Shown: positions 1 through 10,967 of the stretch, one piece after another
Layout: each line of letters opens with the position of its first letter
Numbering within the stretch: the first letter of the stretch is position 1
DNA from: a virus
Taxonomy: Duplodnaviria; Heunggongvirae; Uroviricota; Caudoviricetes
Strand: one strand, 5' to 3'
DNA length: 10,967 nucleotides
IMG/VR virus record: IMGVR_UViG_2541047816_000006
Span: 1-10,967 of that record
Position numbers and translations under genes: made by a program
The notes under the pieces: generated by a model
What the model saw: the letters and a program-made list of their open reading frames with translations, nothing else
The model's database searches: none
Told to the model about the DNA's origin: nothing

Positions 1-3839
<3,839 letters not shown>

Positions 3840-3861
3840 TCATCAGTTGCTGCTATGGAAT

Positions 3862-4185
3862 ATGGTTGACAGTCTGATTAAAACATTAATAGCCATTCTA
3901 ACAATCCCACTGGTTTTCTGGTTTATGAAGAAGCAGTGCCAAAGAGTTGAGACAGGTAAAATCGGTGATGAAGGATACTCATGGGAGAGGGGAAATCCCA
4001 AATACAGGCCGACAATGGTTTGGGATAGCAAAGGAGATATTAACCTTCTTATCATGCCATTGGTTGGAGTTTTGACTCTGTGGGGGATTTTTATTATTGG
4101 TGTAGTAACCAATATGACTTGGTTAAAAATTTGGCTGGCCCCAAAGCTTTACCTTATCGAATATGCAGCATCATTGGTTAAGTAA
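3862..4185 (+). CDS. Small hydrophobic protein with two predicted transmembrane helices (about 107 aa), moron-like cargo
   Basis: ORF in a visibly AT-rich stretch; hydrophobic segments LIKTLIAILTIPLVFWF and LLIMPLVGVLTLWGIFIIGVV; strong terminator immediately downstream. Start uncertain (TTG 3847 or ATG 3862); the frame stays open back to the IS100 boundary (in-frame stop at 3790..3792 inside the IS). No clear Shine-Dalgarno sequence. Confidence 0.45.
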   Translation: MVDSLIKTLIAILTIPLVFWFMKKQCQRVETGKIGDEGYSWERGNPKYRPTMVWDSKGDINLLIMPLVGVLTLWGIFIIGVVTNMTWLKIWLAPKLYLIEYAASLVK

Positions 4186-4189
4186 TTTC

Positions 4190-4215
4190 AGGCCGCATAG
4201 TCGGCCTTTATTTTT
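4190..4215 (+). terminator. Rho-independent terminator
   Basis: Perfect 6-bp stem aggccg / cggcct with loop catagt, followed by ttatttttg; begins 5 nt after the stop codon at 4183..4185. Confidence 0.7.
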
Positions 4216-4244
4216 GGCATAAACAACAGAATAAACACTGCACT

Positions 4245-4272
4245 GTGTATTCATTCCAACGAGTGAATACAC
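4245..4272 (+). promoter_or_regulatory. Perfect 9-bp-arm inverted repeat (candidate operator or RNA hairpin)
   Basis: gtgtattca - ttccaacgag - tgaatacac; arms are exact reverse complements with a 10-bp spacer; sits in a non-coding stretch between two terminators. Confidence 0.4.
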
Positions 4273-4334
4273 GGAGCAATGTCGCTCGTAACTAAACAGG
4301 AGCCGACTTGTTCTGATTATTGGAAATCTTCTTT

Positions 4335-4360
4335 GCCCTCCAATGTGAGGGCCTTTTTAT
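4335..4360 (+). terminator. Rho-independent terminator
   Basis: Stem gccctc / gagggc with loop caatgt, followed by ctttttat. It lies inside the six-frame-track ORF 4320..4595, which argues that ORF's upstream start is spurious. Confidence 0.6.
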
Positions 4361-4424
4361 ATGCATACCAATAACGCTTCACTCGAGGCGTTTTCGTTAT
4401 GCAATCAAACAGAAGGAGCATCCT

Positions 4425-4595
4425 ATGCAACAGTTCGCTATTGCAGGGGCGGCATCGGTTCGCCCTTTCAACCCGATTTTATCGGTACAGCATTCACGAA
4501 AAAACATTTTAACCGGAGCAGACTTTAAACAACCAAGAATGAAAAGTTTGCTCGAAAAGCTTTGGGATATTTTGAAACAACAAGGCCGTCCATGA
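4425..4595 (+). CDS. Hypothetical small protein (56 aa)
   Basis: ATG preceded by AAGGAG with 6-nt spacer; stop overlaps the next ATG (ATGA at 4592..4595). First gene of the plus-strand operon. Confidence 0.45.
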   Translation: MQQFAIAGAASVRPFNPILSVQHSRKNILTGADFKQPRMKSLLEKLWDILKQQGRP

Positions 4596-4699
4596 GTTTT
4601 ACGGATAACTGGTCAGACGAAGAATTCATTCGTCAGATGAACAAAATGCTCAATCAGCACAAAGAACAGGAGAAAGATGATGATTCTGACTCTGAATGA
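4592..4699 (+). CDS. Hypothetical very small acidic protein (35 aa)
   Basis: ATG overlaps the upstream stop (ATGA); product MSFTDNWSDEEFIRQMNKMLNQHKEQEKDDDSDSE; 3' end overlaps the start of the next gene in another frame. Not in the ORF track (under 60 aa); read by hand. Confidence 0.25.
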   Translation: MSFTDNWSDEEFIRQMNKMLNQHKEQEKDDDSDSE

Positions 4700-4988
4700 T
4701 AAGCGTGAAATATCGCAAATAATCGCAAGTTTTACTGATGAAGATTACGAACGAATTAACAGTGAAGTTGATCGCCTCTGCAAACGTTGCGACCCAATAA
4801 GCGAAATGCTTCGCTCATATAAACCAGATGAACACACTAAGGACGCTATCGACTGGCTGGAAGATGATGACTGTAACTATCAGGAAAAAGCCGCTGAATG
4901 GTTCTGGGATGCAATAACCGAAAGAGTTAAGGCTGAATATGCCTTCGCAATATTTAAACGCAGACACATTTTTGGAGAAGCAGCATGA
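4677..4988 (+). CDS. Hypothetical acidic protein (103 aa) translationally coupled to recT
   Basis: Two in-frame ATGs preceded by AGGAG; stop overlaps the recT ATG (ATGA at 4985..4988). No family recognised. Confidence 0.6.
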   Translation: MMILTLNDKREISQIIASFTDEDYERINSEVDRLCKRCDPISEMLRSYKPDEHTKDAIDWLEDDDCNYQEKAAEWFWDAITERVKAEYAFAIFKRRHIFGEAA

Positions 4989-5896
4989 GCAATATCGTTG
5001 AATTCGTTAAACAGCAAGAGCAGTTATTCTGCGGAGCATTGACTGAACAGACGGTGACATGGGCTAAGGAAAGCCAGTTTGCAATTCAGTATTTCCAGAA
5101 AAACGATTACCTGGCTAAAACAGCACTGGCAAATCCAACCAGCGCACAGAACGCCATCATCAATGTTGCGGCGATCGGCATCACCTTAAACCCTGCAAGC
5201 AAACTGGCTTATCTGGTTCCGCGCGATGGCATGGTTTGCCTTGATATCAGCTATATGGGATTGCTCCATATTGCAATGGAGTCTGGTGTTATCTCATGGG
5301 GTCAGGCAAAACTTGTTCATGCTAACGATACCTATGAGTCAAACGGGCTTGATAAAGCACCAACCCATAAATACAACGCCTTCGGTGATCGTGGTGATAT
5401 CGTTGGCGTTTACTGCACAGTTAAGACGCCGGCAGGTGATTATCTAACGGAAGAGATGAGTCTGGCTGAAATTGAGGCTGTAAGGAAAACAAGCAAGGCA
5501 GCATTCAGCGATAAAGGACCATGGGTAAATCACTGGAATGAGATGGCGCGAAAGACGGTCGTAAAGCGTGCAAGCAAGTATTGGCCTAAGGCATCACGTC
5601 TTGATAGTGCTATTCACGTACTAAACGAAGAAGAAGGTGTATGGACTGAACCAGTTATGCCGCACAAATCAGAGGAAGATATCCGCGAAGATGAACGGAA
5701 ACGCCAGCAGGAAATAACGGATAAAGCACAACTTCTTTGTGATGAAATGGCTCAGGCAGAAAACATGGATGATTTGAAGCGATATTTTGCAGAAGCATAT
5801 CGCCTGACATCTGGAATGAAATTGCAGCAGAACATACAAGCCATTTACATAGAATGCAAAGCGAAACTGGAGGTTGCCAGTGAGCAAACTGTATGA
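4985..5896 (+). CDS. recT: RecT-family single-strand annealing recombinase (303 aa)
   Basis: Segment KGPWVNHWNEMARKTVVKRASKYWP closely resembles the conserved GPWVTHWEEMAKKTAIRRLFKYLP region of Rac-prophage RecT as I recall it; size typical. Confidence 0.88.
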   Translation: MSNIVEFVKQQEQLFCGALTEQTVTWAKESQFAIQYFQKNDYLAKTALANPTSAQNAIINVAAIGITLNPASKLAYLVPRDGMVCLDISYMGLLHIAMESGVISWGQAKLVHANDTYESNGLDKAPTHKYNAFGDRGDIVGVYCTVKTPAGDYLTEEMSLAEIEAVRKTSKAAFSDKGPWVNHWNEMARKTVVKRASKYWPKASRLDSAIHVLNEEEGVWTEPVMPHKSEEDIREDERKRQQEITDKAQLLCDEMAQAENMDDLKRYFAEAYRLTSGMKLQQNIQAIYIECKAKLEVASEQTV

Positions 5897-6362
5897 AATA
5901 GCTAATGAATACGCAAAATTGATGGATTCAGATTTAGAACCAGAGATGATTGCTGACACAATAGAAGGCATGGAAGGAGAATTTACCGATAAAATAGAGC
6001 AACTTCTCGCCATTATTAAAAATGAATCTGGTTATGCTGAACGCCTCAAGGAAGAGGCAAAGTCACTAAATGAGCGAGCCGCAGTAATTCAAAATAAGAT
6101 TGACAGCATCAAATCATATATAGCGTCATCGCTTGAAATGGTTGGCAAGAAAAAGATTCGAGCAGGTATTCACCAGGTAACAATCCGCAAACCGTCAGAA
6201 ACTGTAGAAATCATCGACTCAAGCGCCCTTCCTCCTGAATACGTTGAGTTTGAAACGACAATTAAAGCCGACAAGTTGGCAATCAAACACCAACTAAAAG
6301 CAGGAATAAATATCCCCGGTGCTCAACTCAAAGTTGGGAAACCTTCACTTCTTATCAAATAA
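5880..6362 (+). CDS. Coiled-coil protein, Gam-like / Siphovirus-Gp157-like recombination accessory (about 160 aa)
   Basis: Immediately after recT, overlapping its stop; GGAGG 6 nt upstream of GTG 5880 (track start is TTG 5874). Coiled-coil N-terminal half and C-terminal region resemble small proteins commonly paired with recT; family assignment is tentative. Confidence 0.55.
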   Translation: MSKLYEIANEYAKLMDSDLEPEMIADTIEGMEGEFTDKIEQLLAIIKNESGYAERLKEEAKSLNERAAVIQNKIDSIKSYIASSLEMVGKKKIRAGIHQVTIRKPSETVEIIDSSALPPEYVEFETTIKADKLAIKHQLKAGINIPGAQLKVGKPSLLIK

Positions 6363-6373
6363 CGATATCGCCT

Positions 6374-6688
6374 ATGAAAAAGACTCCTTGGGAGAAATGG
6401 GAAGTCGATTTCTTGCGCGAAGTAGCGGCAACAATGCCAGTTGAAGTTATCGCTGAAAAACTGGAAAGGACTGAAAAAGCAGTAATGGCGAAAGCAACAA
6501 GGATTGGCGCTGACATTGTTAGCCGACTTCGTGGAAGACGCTGGACAAGAGCCGAAGTATCACTTTTCGGTAAGTTCTCCGCAGAAGAAATAGCAATTGC
6601 AACCTGCCGCTCAATTTATTCAGTGAGAGCTATGCGATACAAGCTAAAAAAACTCGATGAAGAAAGAGCAGGCATACGAATAAATTAA
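6374..6688 (+). CDS. Hypothetical protein with internal tandem duplication of a helix-turn-helix-like module (104 aa)
   Basis: Two similar halves: WEKWEVDFLREVAATMPVEVIAEKLERTEKAVMAKATRIG and WTRAEVSLFGKFSAEEIAIATCRSIYSVRAMRYKL; weak ribosome-binding site. Confidence 0.55.
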   Translation: MKKTPWEKWEVDFLREVAATMPVEVIAEKLERTEKAVMAKATRIGADIVSRLRGRRWTRAEVSLFGKFSAEEIAIATCRSIYSVRAMRYKLKKLDEERAGIRIN

Positions 6689-6704
6689 CATGGAGTAATT
6701 AACA

Positions 6705-6986
6705 ATGAAGCTAAACATCGACCTCGGAAAATACGTTATTACCGGAACCAAACACGACCTGATTCTTAGCGAAAGAGGAATTATCAAAGAAGGCGAGAAT
6801 GCAGGGAAAGAAACACTAAGCCGTATCGGTTATTACAGCAAGTTTGAGCATCTGGTTAAAGAATTATGCGACCGTGAAATCCTGTTATCTCAGGCGCAGA
6901 CGCTACAGGATATTCAGCAACATATCGAGAATTTAGGTGTGTCACTTAGCATGGCTATTGACCAGTTCGTGGAGAGTAAATCATGA
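6705..6986 (+). CDS. Hypothetical protein (93 aa)
   Basis: ORF with GGAG upstream; stop overlaps the next ATG (ATGA). Confidence 0.55.
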
Positions 6987-7147
6987 GAGGACTTGCATAC
7001 AATCCCGGCATTCTTCCGGCAGAAATGATTATTCGCCAACGCGTAAAGCCAATGCCATCGAGAGAGGAATTGCTTAAGAGAAATTCTTTTCCATCAGTGA
7101 ATCAAAACAAATATCTGAATGCGATGTTGCGGAGTGGGAAGAAATGA
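6983..7147 (+). CDS. Hypothetical small basic protein (54 aa)
   Basis: Read by hand (not in track): [54 protein letters not shown]; start overlaps the upstream stop and its stop overlaps the next ATG, filling an otherwise gene-free gap in a tightly coupled operon. Confidence 0.35.
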
Positions 7148-7626
7148 AACAAATGTCACTAATTGAGATGGATGGATTTCTGAAAGGTAAATGCATCCCA
7201 CGAGATTTAAAGGTTAACGAAACAAACGCTGAATATCTGGTGCGTAAATTTGCTGAAGCGGAGGCCAAGATTTCGGCTCTGTACGAAGACCACCAGAAAG
7301 CGATTGAGTCAATTAAGCAGGCTGATGCAGCTGTTAAGTTGGCACACGAGAAGTTTTCGGCGCTGGCAGCAGAGAATACGGAGCTTAAACAGTCGGAGAA
7401 GGAATTTAATAACTTCTGTCGTCAGGAGTACTACGGTTGGGAGGACAACTTCACGGAAACCCCAGCCACCGACGCTTTCCTGGCTGAAATTGAACGCAAA
7501 GCAATCCGCAAGTTCATTAACAGCATTGAACACATCCTGCGTGACAAGTTGTCACCGTATGACACCGAAGAGATGCTTGAGGCTATGCGTATTTTTCTGG
7601 AAGAACAGAGTGGTGAGCAAAAATGA
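7144..7626 (+). CDS. Hypothetical coiled-coil protein (160 aa)
   Basis: ORF coupled on both sides by ATGA overlaps; central region predicted coiled coil ([51 protein letters not shown]). Confidence 0.6.
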
Positions 7627-7928
7627 CAATCACAAAACAACGGTTAGAAGAAATCATATCCCGCATTGAAATGTATGGACATGGTGCAGGGTATACCGCT
7701 GACGAGGTTTATGACCTAGCTGTACTGGCGCTGAATTTATCAAATATCGCAAACCTGAAGCGATACGAGCTTGATATGGATGGTTGTGACTCGTTCGGTC
7801 AGGATTGTGGCGCTGACATGACTGAAGATCCTGATGGCGATTATGTCCTGTTTGATGACGTGGTTAAGTTGTTTGAGTTTGATACATTCGAAAGCCCAGC
7901 AAGGGAGACAACCAGTGAGCAAGATTGA
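7623..7928 (+). CDS. Hypothetical acidic protein (101 aa) with MTITKQRL N-terminal module
   Basis: ORF; N-terminus paralogous to those of the genes starting at 8995 and 9383. Confidence 0.55.
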   Translation: MTITKQRLEEIISRIEMYGHGAGYTADEVYDLAVLALNLSNIANLKRYELDMDGCDSFGQDCGADMTEDPDGDYVLFDDVVKLFEFDTFESPARETTSEQD

Positions 7929-8799
7929 CTATCAGGCACTGCGTGAGGTGGCGGAACGTGCAATTACAGCAATGGAACGCCTGTTAATGTTGCCAGTTGA
8001 TGATGATTTGTTAAGTGAACAGGAACTTAAAGATTACGGTGTGGATATTGATGCGCTCAACGCCTTCAAATTTCTGGCCGGACCAGAAACCGTGCTGGCA
8101 CTGCTGGATGAACGGGAAAGAAACCAGCAATACATAAAACGCCGTGACCAGGAGAACGAGGATATTGCGCTAACGGTAGGGAAACTGCGTGTTGAGCTTG
8201 AGGAAGCAAAATCAAAACTCAACGAGCAACGCGAGTATTACGAGGGAGTAATCGCGGATGGAAGTAATCACATAGCAGAACTGGAAAAACAATGCGCCGA
8301 ATGGGAGCGAAAAGCATTAAGCAACTTTGAAGAGTGTGCTGCGATGGCTGAACGTATCGAAGAGATGCAGACAAAATCTGCGCCAGATTCGTTTGGCATC
8401 ATCGGTGAAAATATTCGAACACAGGACAATCGAATAACGTCAGATCCCATGTTTTGTGTGTATCAAAAGCGCGAAATCGTTGTTGATGCTGATTATGACC
8501 ATGACCGGATTGTCTGGGTTGACGAAGATGGCAATGAAGCCAATAAACGCCATAGTCGTCGTCTCGAGCTACTTCATGAAAACTTTCGAGAGCCACCAGA
8601 AAAATGGCGGCGCGTTGCTGTGAAAGATATTGATGAATTCGTTACCTGCTGTTTCACCGAACAGGGTTGTAAAGACTACCTGGCAGTCAATGGTCACAAT
8701 CTTCGCTTGCCATTTATATATGTAAAAAGCGGTTTCAGGAACGCTGAATATATCGACATAAGAAACTGGCTTGCTGGCATTCGCATCAAAGGAGAGTGA
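7915..8799 (+). CDS. Ead/Ea22-like coiled-coil protein (about 294 aa)
   Basis: GTG 7915 preceded by GGGAGA; the track's upstream start 7834 gives a hydrophobic leader that overlaps the previous gene and is probably not translated. N-terminus SKIDYQALREVAERAITAMERL plus a long coiled coil resembles Ead/Ea22-like proteins of lambdoid prophages (from memory). Confidence 0.6.
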   Translation: MSKIDYQALREVAERAITAMERLLMLPVDDDLLSEQELKDYGVDIDALNAFKFLAGPETVLALLDERERNQQYIKRRDQENEDIALTVGKLRVELEEAKSKLNEQREYYEGVIADGSNHIAELEKQCAEWERKALSNFEECAAMAERIEEMQTKSAPDSFGIIGENIRTQDNRITSDPMFCVYQKREIVVDADYDHDRIVWVDEDGNEANKRHSRRLELLHENFREPPEKWRRVAVKDIDEFVTCCFTEQGCKDYLAVNGHNLRLPFIYVKSGFRNAEYIDIRNWLAGIRIKGE

Positions 8800-8800
8800 G

Positions 8801-8992
8801 ATGAAAGGACAAATATCAATTGTTCGACCGGGAGCATGTGACGATAGCGAGATACGAATGATTATTCGTCTGGCGATGGGGAAAACAATAACAGCTCTCA
8901 TTACTCCAGAAAATCTCGCATTAGCTTTAACCGGAAAGTCAGACCTGCCAGTGGAGCTAAAGCTGCGAAATGTTGAGATTAAGGTGAAATAG
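8801..8992 (+). CDS. Hypothetical small protein (63 aa)
   Basis: ATG 8801 preceded by AAAGGAGAGTGAG; the upstream gene stop lies within this ribosome-binding site. Confidence 0.5.
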   Translation: MKGQISIVRPGACDDSEIRMIIRLAMGKTITALITPENLALALTGKSDLPVELKLRNVEIKVK

Positions 8993-8994
8993 CT

Positions 8995-9381
8995 ATGACC
9001 ACTATTACCAAAGAGCGACTGCTGACAATCAAGCAGTGGCGCGAAACATACGGACCTGGTAGCAACGTTGTACTGCCAGCAGAAGAAGCGGAAGAACTGG
9101 CACGAATTGCTCTGGCATCGCTGGAAGCAAAACCAATAGGTGCATTCCACATTGCAGAACAGCAAGTTGACGGCACAAGTGACTACCTCAAGGATGGAGA
9201 ATGGCCTATTGATAATGGAATTATTGAGGTCTACGCCGCTCCCCCCGTTCCAGTAGTACCGGAAGAAAAACCAATGCCTAATCCTCTTAGCATGTACGCG
9301 GTCGATGCTGTTGCCGCTATTGCAGAGGTGAGAGGCTGGAACGCCTGCCGTGCCGCTATGCTTCAGGGAAAAGGAGAGTGA
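8995..9381 (+). CDS. Hypothetical protein (128 aa) with MTTITKERL N-terminal module
   Basis: ORF 2 nt after the upstream stop; N-terminal module shared with 7623 and 9383 genes; ends ...QGKGE. Confidence 0.6.
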   Translation: MTTITKERLLTIKQWRETYGPGSNVVLPAEEAEELARIALASLEAKPIGAFHIAEQQVDGTSDYLKDGEWPIDNGIIEVYAAPPVPVVPEEKPMPNPLSMYAVDAVAAIAEVRGWNACRAAMLQGKGE

Positions 9382-9382
9382 T

Positions 9383-9928
9383 ATGACCACTATAACCGAT
9401 AAGAAACAGTATCCAGGCGAGCAATATCTTAATGAGCTAATCACCAACATAGAGTTTGCTGCAAGGGCACCAGTTGAAGTCGTGAGAGCGATGGCAGCAG
9501 AGCTACGGAAGCGGCGCGAAGCTGATAGTGCAGAACCTGTAAGCCAAACTTACAAGTTGCCTCCCCTGTCATCCAGCGAAGTAAACGACGCGGCATGGAA
9601 ATTACACAACATGCTGACTGAACACGGCCCGCTAAATGGGCGTCAGTTCAACAATCTGAAAGGTTGCTTCTATGAGGCATTAAAGGTCGCAATGCGCAAC
9701 TATCCGGTAATTCCGGATAGTTGGATAAGCTGTAGTGAGCGAATGCCGGATACCAAAACAGCCGTTCTTGTTGCCAGGGAGTTTGACAGGAAAGGTGACT
9801 GGCGAATGAAATGGGCGACTTACATCCCGGGGCATCCTGACGCTAATGATGGGTGGGTAATACCTGGTGCGTCGTGGATACCATCACACTGGATGCCGCT
9901 ACCAGAACCGCCGCAGGAGGCAAAATGA
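9383..9928 (+). CDS. Hypothetical protein (181 aa) with DUF551-like C-terminus
   Basis: ATG 9383 preceded by AAGGAGAGTGAT; C-terminal WISCSERMPD...GASWIPSHWMPLPEPP resembles the DUF551 signature found in lambdoid ea-region proteins (from memory). Confidence 0.6.
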   Translation: MTTITDKKQYPGEQYLNELITNIEFAARAPVEVVRAMAAELRKRREADSAEPVSQTYKLPPLSSSEVNDAAWKLHNMLTEHGPLNGRQFNNLKGCFYEALKVAMRNYPVIPDSWISCSERMPDTKTAVLVAREFDRKGDWRMKWATYIPGHPDANDGWVIPGASWIPSHWMPLPEPPQEAK

Positions 9929-10185
9929 TGGATGTAAAAGAGAAGGTTTTGCAGGTGATACGTTCCCGTGCTGCCCTGCAAGAGAAAGCTCTCGGCGGGG
10001 AATATCCATTCACGATAGCAACCTGGAATCTGCGGTTGGCAATGGAGAAGGAATTTCCTGATGAAGAATGGCGTTCGGCAGATTTGCGCAAAATTCTTAT
10101 GGAGATTGCTAAAGACGGAACAGTATCTAAAGATAAACATGCCAGCCGGATTGGTCAGGCAGTATGGAGACTGGAGGAGCGGTAA
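9925..10185 (+). CDS. Hypothetical protein (86 aa)
   Basis: ATG 9925 preceded by GGAGG and overlapping the upstream stop (ATGA); the track's longer start at 9853 would overlap the previous gene. Confidence 0.55.
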   Translation: MMDVKEKVLQVIRSRAALQEKALGGEYPFTIATWNLRLAMEKEFPDEEWRSADLRKILMEIAKDGTVSKDKHASRIGQAVWRLEER

Positions 10186-10469
10186 TGGCTAACCTGCAAC
10201 TTGCCGTCAAAGGTGAATACTTCGATGCCATGATTCGCGGGGAGAAAACGGAAGAGTATCGCCTGTGTAATGACTACTGGAAAAAGCGCCTCGTTAACCG
10301 TAAGCATGACCGCCTGATTATCACAAAGGGATATCCGAAGCGCGACGATTCCAGCCGCAGAATAGACGTCCCGTATGACGGATATGAAATCAAGACAATC
10401 ACACATCCGCACTTCGGCGATAAACCGGTAAAGGTGTTCGCGATAAAGGTAAATATCGGCAATGAATAA
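10185..10469 (+). CDS. ASCH-domain (PUA-like fold) protein (94 aa)
   Basis: ATG 10185 preceded by GGAGG, overlapping the upstream stop (TAATG). Contains G-E-K-T-E-E-Y-R, which fits the ASCH signature GxKxxExR, in the context YFDAMIRGEKTEEYR. Confidence 0.55.
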   Translation: MANLQLAVKGEYFDAMIRGEKTEEYRLCNDYWKKRLVNRKHDRLIITKGYPKRDDSSRRIDVPYDGYEIKTITHPHFGDKPVKVFAIKVNIGNE

Positions 10470-10472
10470 CAA

Positions 10473-10500
10473 TCCTCGCACTCGCGGGGATTTCTTTTAT
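10473..10500 (+). terminator. Rho-independent terminator (intra-operon)
   Basis: Stem tcctcgc / gcgggga (7 bp, one G-U wobble), loop actc, followed by tttcttttat; begins 4 nt after the stop at 10467..10469. Confidence 0.5.
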
Positions 10501-10541
10501 CTGAACTCGCTACGGCGGGTTTTGTTTTATGGAGATGATAA

Positions 10542-10709
10542 ATGCACTTCCGAGTCACAGGTGAATGGAATGGAGAGCCATTCAACAGAGTTATCGAAGC
10601 AGAGAACATCAACGACTGCTATGACCACTGGATGATATGGGCGCAGATAGCACATGCAGACGTAACCAATATTCGAATTGAAGAACTGAAAGAACACCAA
10701 GCCGCCTGA
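10542..10709 (+). CDS. Hypothetical small protein (55 aa)
   Basis: Read by hand: MHFRVTGEWNGEPFNRVIEAENINDCYDHWMIWAQIAHADVTNIRIEELKEHQAA; GGAG 7 nt upstream of the ATG; stop codon sits inside the terminator hairpin. Confidence 0.4.
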   Translation: MHFRVTGEWNGEPFNRVIEAENINDCYDHWMIWAQIAHADVTNIRIEELKEHQAA

Positions 10710-10724
10710 TGGCGGTTTTTTATT
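10698..10724 (+). terminator. Rho-independent terminator upstream of the excisionase gene
   Basis: Stem gccgcc / ggcggt with loop tgat, followed by tttttatt. Confidence 0.6.
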
Positions 10725-10766
10725 GCCTGATTTGCAGGTTCGATTCCCTATTTGGAGATAGCACTC

Positions 10767-10967
10767 ATGCAACACGAACTACAACCTGATTCACTGGTTG
10801 ATTTGAAATTCATCATGGCCGATACTGGCTTCGGTAAAACCTTCATCTATGACCGGATTAAGTCCGGAGACCTGCCTAAAGCCAAAGTTATCCACGGGCG
10901 AGCAAGATGGTTATATCGTGACCATTGTGAATTCAAAAATAAACTCTTAAGCCGCGCCAATGGGTAA
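10767..10967 (+). CDS. xis: AlpA-family excisionase / prophage regulatory protein (66 aa)
   Basis: Small protein with the pattern DLKFIMADTGFGKTFIYDRIKSGDLPKAKVIHGRARWLYRDHCEFKNKL, typical of AlpA/Xis helix-turn-helix proteins (...TIYRLIK.G.FP.P.K.G.R...W). GGAG upstream of ATG 10767; stop is the last codon of the window. Confidence 0.7.
   Translation: MQHELQPDSLVDLKFIMADTGFGKTFIYDRIKSGDLPKAKVIHGRARWLYRDHCEFKNKLLSRANG

Follow-up and report, generated by a model that had tools for sequence, protein, structure and literature searches.

Introduction

Do the short sequences that border the small accessory genes of a lambdoid prophage serve simply to start translation of the next gene, or are they also places at which neighbouring genes are exchanged? 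This question is raised by a stretch of 10,967 nucleotides (nt) from a virus of the class Caudoviricetes (positions 1 to 10,967 of IMG/VR record IMGVR_UViG_2541047816_000006), which we analysed as a whole and refer to as the window. The segment is the exo-xis ('ea') part of a lambdoid E. coli prophage; the exo-xis region is reported to modulate the lysis-lysogeny decision and the induction of Shiga toxin (Stx) prophages. An initial annotation of the window had pointed to two near-identical junctions between genes, here called J1 and J2, and to three genes that seemed to begin with a related module followed by unrelated C-termini, and it had read the junctions as linkers at which gene cassettes are exchanged.

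We conclude that the junctions of this ea region are probably linkers, i.e., adaptors for translational coupling that would also act as homology patches for recombination re-assorting their neighbours. Four observations carry this conclusion: the junctions are conserved, their flanks are combinatorial, homology breakpoints cluster at their edges, and a 582-bp segment between two junction copies is present in one locus and absent from another.

Sequence and conservation of the junctions

The junctions and the genes that they separate are as follows.

J1, long form: 8771..8804, + strand; GCTGGCATTCGCATCAAAGGAGAGTGAGATG, consisting of the last codons of the Ea22-like gene, AAGGAG, TGA, one base and the next ATG
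J2, short form: 9370..9386, + strand; AAAGGAGAGTGATATGA, ends g8995 (..MLQGKGE-stop) and starts g9383
Ead/Ea22-like gene: 7915..8799, + strand; GTG start, 294 amino acids (aa), PF13935, E = 5.7e-36
63-aa single-gene cassette: 8801..8992, + strand; starts MKGQISIVRPGACDD, phrog_1222, homologue of HK620 hkaF
g8995: 8995..9381, + strand; 128-aa Eaa-type gene with head MTTITKERLLTIKQWRETYGPG, DUF551 domain absent
g9383: 9383..9928, + strand; 181-aa Eaa/DUF551 gene with head MTTITDKKQYPGEQY, PF04448, E = 2.9e-20

The two junctions contain a 17-nt direct repeat (D6), AAAGGAGAGTGA(G/T)ATGA, at 8788-8804 and 9370-9386, with 16 of the 17 nt identical, and both upstream proteins end in KGE-stop. The initial annotation was right on these points, and the sequences that it quoted are present where it placed them. 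The repeat reads AAA GGA GAG TGA n ATG, which puts a consensus Shine-Dalgarno (SD) sequence within the K-G-E codons, followed by the stop, a single base and the start. When a 15-mer junction pattern was allowed up to two mismatches, the window held two matches against 0.11 expected, a number reached by 2 of 200 shuffles. J1 and J2 share only this core of 16-17 nt, and part of their identity is functional constraint, since the repeat combines SD, stop and start.

The long form of the junction spans about 28-37 nt (cgCGCcGCtGGCATTCGCATCAAAGGAGAGTGAnATG), encodes the protein tail (RAA)GIRIKGE-stop and, in J1, includes GGCATTCGCATC outside the SD-stop-start. It is the conserved 3' end of ea22-type genes in the lambdoid and P22-like phages of Escherichia, Shigella and Salmonella; more broadly, ea22-type and Eaa-type genes alike close with the junction as their conserved 3' end, and it carries the ribosome-binding site (RBS) of the gene that follows. 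The predicted RNA fold across 8745-8830 was no better than that of shuffled sequences (z = +0.89), which is consistent with an open RBS at J1. Two other candidates for the junction were rejected, namely an RNA element, given this fold and an empty Rfam result across the window, and a promoter/terminator cassette like the PeSLs of T4-type phages, as no such sites lie at 8771-8804 or 9370-9386.

Partners on either side of the junction

Our surveys took in about 440 related phage loci, collected with anchors derived from the window. A scan of IMG/VR for the exact 16-mer of the junction returned at least 120 loci, about 70 of them enterobacterial ea regions that share the longer tail ...GIRIKGE-stop. 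Because such a scan selects on the junction itself, the survey was repeated with anchors independent of it. With the Ea22 C-terminal domain of the window as anchor (93-99% aa identity), about 75 of 80 loci had the junction GCTGGCATTCGCATCAAAGGAGAGTGAnATG intact; at least 14 different genes followed it, and its single spacer base varied with the downstream gene. Anchored on the 63-aa gene (80 loci), J1 was near invariant, intact in about 76 of the 80, and was preceded by at least 10 unrelated protein ends. The proposal of linkers flanked by exchanged cassettes has therefore withstood the comparison, as homologous loci keep the junction amid changing partners on both sides.

When 183 unique junction segments were grouped according to their outer flanks, 50 families emerged upstream and 42 downstream, in 96 combinations; 56 of these fell in a connected core of 17 by 11 families. 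Here the 63-aa gene had 13 different upstream partners, and the short form J2 (..AMLQGKGE-stop, upstream family U7) had five different downstream partners. Between upstream families, ungapped identity stayed at background (0.25-0.29) up to position -22, then rose to 0.43 and to 0.60 over the last 21 nt; past the ATG it fell to 0.32 over +16..+33 and returned to background (0.25-0.26) by about 20-30 nt. At the junction edges identity stepped from 0.25-0.29 to 0.6-0.97 and back. The codons GGC ATT CGC ATC (G-I-R-I) are the same in nearly all families, so the sharing is at the level of DNA and not of protein alone, and the identity profile indicates a unit of about 28-37 nt, nearly all of it at the 3' end of the gene upstream. 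Since most upstream families are Ea22-type, with the same head and coiled coil and different C-terminal domains, J1 forms the unvarying 3' end of a gene whose middle can be exchanged, and it also marks the boundary with an exchangeable neighbour.

A 37-mer consensus of the long form is present in 180 phage records, lambda and HK620 included. In HK620 it joins hkaG to hkaF, which is the 63-aa gene. In lambda (NC_001416.1; L284, 1501-1720), ea22 ends ..SDAGIRIKGE-stop and the junction reads GCTGGCATTCGCATCAAAGGAGAGTGAG, with ATC in place of ATG and about 190 unannotated bases before ea8.5; the lambda ea22 end is an 'orphan' linker with no downstream cassette. An exact 25-mer scan of species-representative genomes gave four hits (two Escherichia spp., Shimwellia and a contig of a Segatella metagenome-assembled genome), so the long form is narrow in range. 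The last of these, a 3.3-kb contig binned as Segatella copri (L280; JAJXBQ010000292.1) that carries the exact 25-nt junction, is most likely a mis-binned enterobacterial phage fragment. Separately, the exact 16-mer was seen behind (E/D)RAAAGKGE-stop tails with different flanks (L003, L005, L055, L060, L069, L078, L110, L119 and L120), and at least one of these contigs (family U18) encodes an Ea22-like protein; the K-G-E-stop junction may reach more distant Ea22 relatives.

These profiles bear on functional convergence, under which the junctions resemble one another because coupling needs an SD, a stop and a start, and have no role in exchange; mosaic joints would stem from illegitimate recombination, with selection retaining those at gene borders (the Hendrix model). 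Convergence would fit the core common to the two copies in the window, which is just SD, TGA, n and ATG, the occurrence of the exact 16-mer in unrelated phage contexts at roughly chance numbers, and the many gene starts preceded by unrelated sequences that have only an SD in common (37 upstream contexts); about 70% of mosaics are also reported to lack a trace of flanking homology (De Paepe et al., PMC3945230). Set against this, conservation extends 12-21 nt beyond the SD with the same codons in otherwise unalignable families, the step between near identity and background is abrupt on both sides, one 30-nt string joins at least 56 left/right combinations, and an indel in a related locus, L049, is bounded exactly by the repeat. 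We regard convergence as an unlikely explanation of the whole pattern.

Homology breakpoints and in-frame joints

To map breakpoints, the stretch 7000-10967 was compared by blastn with 279 related loci. Because these loci were chosen with anchors the counts run too high, but the positions are still informative. Starts and ends of homology, the latter counted as ends of high-scoring segment pairs (HSPs), gathered at the following places.

Left edge of J1: 8771-8788; 88 homology starts
ATG of g8995: 8993-8995; pile-up of homology starts and stops
Just past MTTITKE of g8995: 9009-9017; pile-up of homology starts and stops
ASLEAKPIG joint: 9094-9142, with the pile-up of starts and stops at 9125-9142
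J2: 9365-9374; 29 HSP ends
Just past MTTIT of g9383: 9385-9396; pile-up of homology starts and stops
Start of DUF551: 9688-9752, a pile-up of starts and stops with joints at 9688-9696 and 9747-9752

Breakpoints also fell at the Ea22 coiled coil (8077-8097 and 8201-8289) and at further joints of g8995 (9232-9262 and 9333-9374). The in-frame joints that recur between loci are ASLEA(E/D/K)P(V/I), VYAAPPVPVVP, GWNACRAAML(Q/H)G, AEPVSQTYKLPP, PDGWISCSERMP and the end HWMPLPEPPQE. Past GWNACRAAML alone there were more than a dozen alternative continuations, either in frame or through a stop and a new gene. Most exchange keeps the reading frame and falls at short conserved joints inside genes of the Eaa/DUF551 and Ea22 types.

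Three of the genes are built as follows. The gene at 7915-8799 belongs to the Ead_Ea22 family (124.6 bits, cut-off 27) and runs from an Ea22 head through a conserved coiled-coil segment and a variable C-terminal domain to the tail ...LAGIRIKGE-stop. g8995 is made up of a head to ASLEAKPIG, a middle to VYAAPPVPVVP, the GWNACRAAML module and the tail QGKGE-stop. It corresponds to the N-terminal 128 aa of Eaa/DUF551 family proteins and has thousands of homologues, most of them 200-223 aa long, in which ...GWNACRAAMLQGK is followed in frame by a low-complexity stretch and then DUF551; in a common variant (P0064) the g8995 sequence is joined to the same DUF551 domain as in g9383. g9383 consists of the MTTIT start, a head b to ADSAEPV, a SQTYKLPP... 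module, DUF551 (residues 113-178, 73.3 bits against a cut-off of 22, which places it in that family) and the end ..PLPEPPQEAK-stop, with a stop codon that overlaps the following start. Its modules turn up behind other heads, Ea22 heads included (P0136, P0143), always in frame, and matches to it split at residues ~50-60. Both g8995 and g9383 give several partial PHROG hits, and such multiple partial hits are a signature of mosaic proteins.

Gene cassettes between junction copies

The clearest presence/absence case is L049 (IMGVR_UViG_2737471846_000004), which has the same Ea22 C-terminal domain (96% over 711 nt), a single copy of the junction and then a g9383-type gene (96% over 171 nt). In a three-way alignment L049 follows the left flank of J1 up to the junction and the right flank of J2 afterwards, so that the 582 bp between the junction copies of the window, i.e., the 63-aa gene and g8995, are absent. 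Other loci have one or two genes bracketed by the exact 16-mer AAAGGAGAGTGAnATG (L063, L020, L032, L073, L093 and L286-L365), with as many as three copies in one ea region; certain spacings (196, 217, 648 and 921 nt) are seen repeatedly. A 71-aa cassette (MAIAASYTMH...ILRSNKGE-stop) has the core at both ends, and an identical g9383 follows another Eaa gene (136 aa, ..AMLKGKGE-stop) in plasmid-sized contigs. Pfam recognised almost nothing in the alternative downstream cassettes.

Single-gene cassettes with the exact 16-mer on both sides, at recurrent spacings, in up to three copies per locus and with highly combinatorial partners, would suit a dedicated system, be it a site-specific recombinase, a homing endonuclease or an integron-like capture that inserts single genes at the junction. 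Several features speak against such a system. The junction has no inverted repeat, fold or other structure of a cassette site, and the only recombination genes recognised among those of the window are RecT and the transposase genes of an IS21 element (istA/istB). No nuclease domain was recognised in the cassettes, and among the proteins scanned the sole notable match was a below-threshold one to the Mom family, on one upstream family (U5). The spacer base moves with the downstream gene, as expected for crossover within the upstream homology patch, and the equally frequent in-frame joints elsewhere in the genes favour a general mechanism. A dedicated system is accordingly the explanation to which we give least credence, and we think it very improbable.

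Gene starts and N-terminal modules

Two further features concern the way in which the genes begin.

g7623: 7623..7928, + strand; 101 aa, phrog_3126, head paralogous to the Eaa head
Conserved gene start: 8994..9017, + strand; (T)ATGACCACTATTACCAAAGAG, encodes MTTITKE and is common to many otherwise different Eaa-type heads

The idea of a related N-terminal module in three genes held for two of them. Pairwise alignment, the check proposed with it, placed g7623 and g8995 above chance (z of about 9-10), with a local BLOSUM62 score of 60 against 24 ± 4.2 in shuffles and none of 1000 shuffles as high; the heads alone gave z = 10.4, and z = 4.8 once the first five residues were removed. The similarity extends over about 45 aa and not just the 21 first noted. 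No direct repeat of at least 12 nt connects the 5' ends of g7623 and g8995, and the g7623 family (267 homologues, mostly 100-105 aa) is stable at about 100 aa. Because the likeness is detected only at the protein level, and in a stable gene family, it looks like old paralogy and not like a recent swap.

The third gene, g9383, shares with the head of g8995 only MTTIT: nothing aligned pairwise beyond it, and z was 0.5 without the first five residues. A weak BLASTP link connects the g9383 head to another head type (E = 1e-4, in a single comparison). At the DNA level the first 15 nt of the two genes match at 14 positions, within a 16-nt direct repeat (D7), TATGACCACTAT(T/A)ACC, at 8994-9009 and 9382-9397. 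The description of the C-termini as unrelated stands only in part, as the mosaic Eaa/DUF551 family includes both g8995 and g9383, which match phrog_60 from the identical profile position. Elsewhere, GACTGCTATGACCACT at 10614-10629, inside the open reading frame 10542-10709, resembles the g9383 start at 14 of 16 nt; this is probably chance or a relic.

The gene start of 15-20 nt, ATGACCACTATTACC (MTTIT), is another short conserved stretch. At its left edge (8993-8995) 56 HSPs start, and 69 end at 9009-9017, so that homology to other phages often breaks off here; it was found between 37 upstream contexts and 12 downstream families among loci selected on the pattern itself. After the 63-aa gene there are at least seven different heads, all of which open M(T/N)(T/S)(I/L)T, and for this reason the MTTIT codons behave as a right-hand counterpart of J1.

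Old paralogy could be extended to the whole pattern, if the three genes were ancient ea duplicates whose N-termini and tails diverged slowly through constraints on the protein (an N-terminal helix, a C-terminal peptide), with no exchange needed. Such a history would suit the protein likeness of g7623 and g8995 (z ~9-10) in the absence of a direct repeat of 12 nt or more at their 5' ends, the stable length of the g7623 family, the common PHROG and profile start of g8995 and g9383, and the tails RWNDSRAAGIRIKGE and GWNACRAAMLQGKGE, which have W-N-x-x-R-A-A ... K-G-E in common. It leaves unexplained the identical DNA junctions between unalignable sequences and the free re-assortment of partners, the identical g9383 in two upstream contexts, and a 14/15-nt identity between the g8995 and g9383 starts that gives way to zero similarity. 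As an account of the junctions, slow divergence of duplicates seems to us quite unlikely, somewhat more so than convergence.

Genomic context

The window is part of an E. coli chromosome, and positions 3383-10967 are 100% identical to scaffold KE700789.1 of GCA_000458935.1. Coverage of the stretch reached 80% neither in a phage record nor in a complete E. coli genome; database matches were fragmentary, at 90-97% identity per piece, and the region is strongly mosaic. Two further genes are relevant here.

RecT-family single-strand annealing protein: 4985..5896, + strand; PF03837, E = 2.9e-32
160-aa ea-region gene: 7144..7626, + strand; phrog_614 and five partial PHROG hits, ATGA stop/start overlap with the next gene

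From 4985 to 10967 the + strand has, first, RecT (4985-5896), a Gp157-like gene and DUF2737 of the early-left operon. The small genes follow on the same strand at 7144-7626, 7623-7928, 7915-8799, 8801-8992, 8995-9381 and 9383-9928; beyond 9928 there are another two of small size, then an ASCH gene and, from 10752, the gene for a TorI-type excisionase. Between 7000 and 10470 there is no promoter-like site on the + strand and no terminator-like site (no terminator before 10471), and neighbouring genes in the run 7144-9928 overlap or lie 1-2 nt apart, so the block is a single translationally coupled unit.

The gene at 7144-7626 holds a 10-residue in-frame joint motif (window 7440-7480). This motif recurs in long variants of the g7623 family (P0246, P0252, P0258), where three different C-terminal extensions follow it; one such extension ends ..WKAIRAAQLRQEAAQ, and a related module elsewhere ends ..WKSIRAAGIRIKGE-stop. 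A second conserved type of junction, GGAG(A/G)CAACCA-GTGAGC(A/G)A.ATT, lies before Ea22 heads (window 7899-7925); its GTG start overlaps the upstream gene's last bases, and 35 homology starts were counted at 7899-7904. One locus (L446) has tandem Ea22 paralogues, each behind this second type (3590-3610 and 4228-4248).

At the left end, an endosialidase tailspike gene on the - strand (1-1836; profiles End_beta_propel, E = 2.4e-158, End_tail_spike and Peptidase_S74) is cut by the window edge. It adjoins an IS21-family element (istA 1927-2949, istB 2946-3728), with the recT operon next. For a lambdoid prophage it is unusual to have a tailspike next to the early-left operon, and this suggests either a rearrangement associated with the insertion sequence or a defective K1-specific prophage. 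At the right end, positions 7385-8708 of L447, which correspond to the window from 10752 onward and beyond, carry host genes, for a LysR regulator and for a GntP permease, immediately behind the gene of the TorI-type excisionase. No integrase lies beside xis in L447, as in KplE1/CPS-53-type prophages, which have int at the opposite end.

Discussion

How could such junctions bring about exchange? On the linker reading, the last codons of the upstream gene would supply the SD AAGGAG for the next ATG, which makes the junction an adaptor for translational coupling. Near identical amid unrelated flanks, it would at the same time offer a homology patch for crossover by general or phage-encoded homologous recombination, for which annealing proteins of the RecT, Red-beta or Erf type are candidates; a RecT gene lies 3 kb upstream. 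Each crossover would re-assort the left side (alternative Ea22 C-terminal domains) with the right side (alternative small genes), and the newcomer downstream would keep correct expression. Where a genome has two junction copies, the segment between them could disappear or be acquired in one piece. The MTTIT start, the in-frame joints of the Eaa/DUF551 and Ea22 genes and the Ea22 coiled coil may follow the same logic. Homologous recombination as the maker of the joints, the enzyme involved and the direction in which each event ran are all inferred, and the RBS and coupling function is what may keep the junction constant.

Length is relevant to this proposal. To pair efficiently, Red-beta is reported to need at least 23-27 bp and RecA at least 31-34 bp (PMC3945230), and at 28-37 nt the long form J1 is at or above the former and near the latter, while J1 and J2 share only 16-17 nt.

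Several points weigh against the linker reading. With 16-17 nt in common, which is below the efficient pairing length of Red-beta and RecA, a direct event between J1 and J2 would be rare or inefficient, and the L049 arrangement may instead have come about through a J1 by J1 exchange with another phage. The bare need for an RBS, a stop and a start would yield some identity in the core even if nothing were exchanged, and about 45 of the 120 loci with the exact 16-mer have unrelated flanks and look like chance. The upstream families mostly belong to one family (Ea22), whose tail could be a retained ancestral sequence or a functional peptide. Finally, the loci were gathered with window anchors, and their breakpoint counts are not an unbiased genome-wide estimate.

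A bolder version, to which we give little weight although slightly more than to convergence, is that the (RAA)GIRIKGE-stop-ATG junction and the MTTIT start form a standardised 'plug' kept by the ea regions of Escherichia and Salmonella lambdoid phages. If so, any incoming gene would receive coupled translation, and single genes could be excised (possibly as small circles, like T4 PeSLs) and re-inserted by the annealing recombinase that the phage itself encodes, given the up to three copies of the junction per region. Early accessory genes would in effect be exchanged as cassettes, in an integron-like and recombinase-independent manner.

The linker reading, in its plainer form, has practical value. 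Exo-xis genes are very variable, and much of their variation is channelled through a small set of reusable junctions and in-frame joints, which account for the fragmentary PHROG and Pfam hits. The joints provide a map by which ea mosaics can be annotated domain by domain and not gene by gene. They also offer a defined and abundant site for weighing the 'linker' model of mosaicism against that of 'illegitimate recombination plus selection'.

Linkers at gene borders belong to the modular theory of lambdoid phage evolution (Susskind and Botstein 1978; Botstein 1980; Clark et al. 2001). Two secondary sources (PMC3233612; PMC2327257) trace the model of exchange at boundary sequences to the first and the last of these, and they say that the HK620 genome paper (Clark et al. 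2001) supports it. The ea-region junctions resemble the linkers of that model in that a short border sequence is conserved, the neighbours differ and homology breakpoints coincide with it; the border here has non-homologous alternatives on both sides and breakpoints at its edges, and the long junction itself is present in HK620 (hkaG|hkaF) and at the end of lambda ea22. They differ in that the linker is part of the upstream gene's coding sequence, at its 3' end, and at the same time serves as RBS for the following gene.

Mosaic Ea22 proteins are a second point of comparison. The Ea22 proteins of lambda and Stx phages are described, in the parts of the papers available (PMC10834534; PMC7093339), as having a common N-terminal segment and coiled coil, unrelated C-terminal domains and a DUF551 variant, and a pro-lysogenic effect of Ea22 is reported. 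The gene at 7915-8799 encodes such a protein, and homologues of g9383 with Ea22 heads exist. Those parts of the two papers treat protein domain mosaicism, without the 3' tail and junction, the variety downstream or the Eaa system of heads and joints.

T4-type PeSLs are stem-loops with promoter and terminator between the non-essential genes of a hyperplastic region (Arbiol et al. 2010, PMC2839356). Common to both systems are repeated short expression signals, and in PeSLs recombination between repeats shuffles, deletes or inserts genes while expression is kept. The junctions described here, in contrast, have no sigma-70 promoter, terminator or stem-loop, and fall outside that class; their signal is translational (SD-stop-start) and partly coding.

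Lastly, Red-beta and RecT can make use of homology that is short or diverged (Martinsohn et al. 2008; De Paepe et al. 2014, PMC3945230). Relaxed recombination of this Rad52-like kind would use patches of 23-37 nt, and a RecT gene is at hand in the window, whereas those studies concern diverged flanking homology in general and no specific, reused junction. Compared with these systems, the phenomenon is the already well-documented linker route to mosaicism, of which the ea-region junctions are a clean and abundant instance and not a new kind of system.

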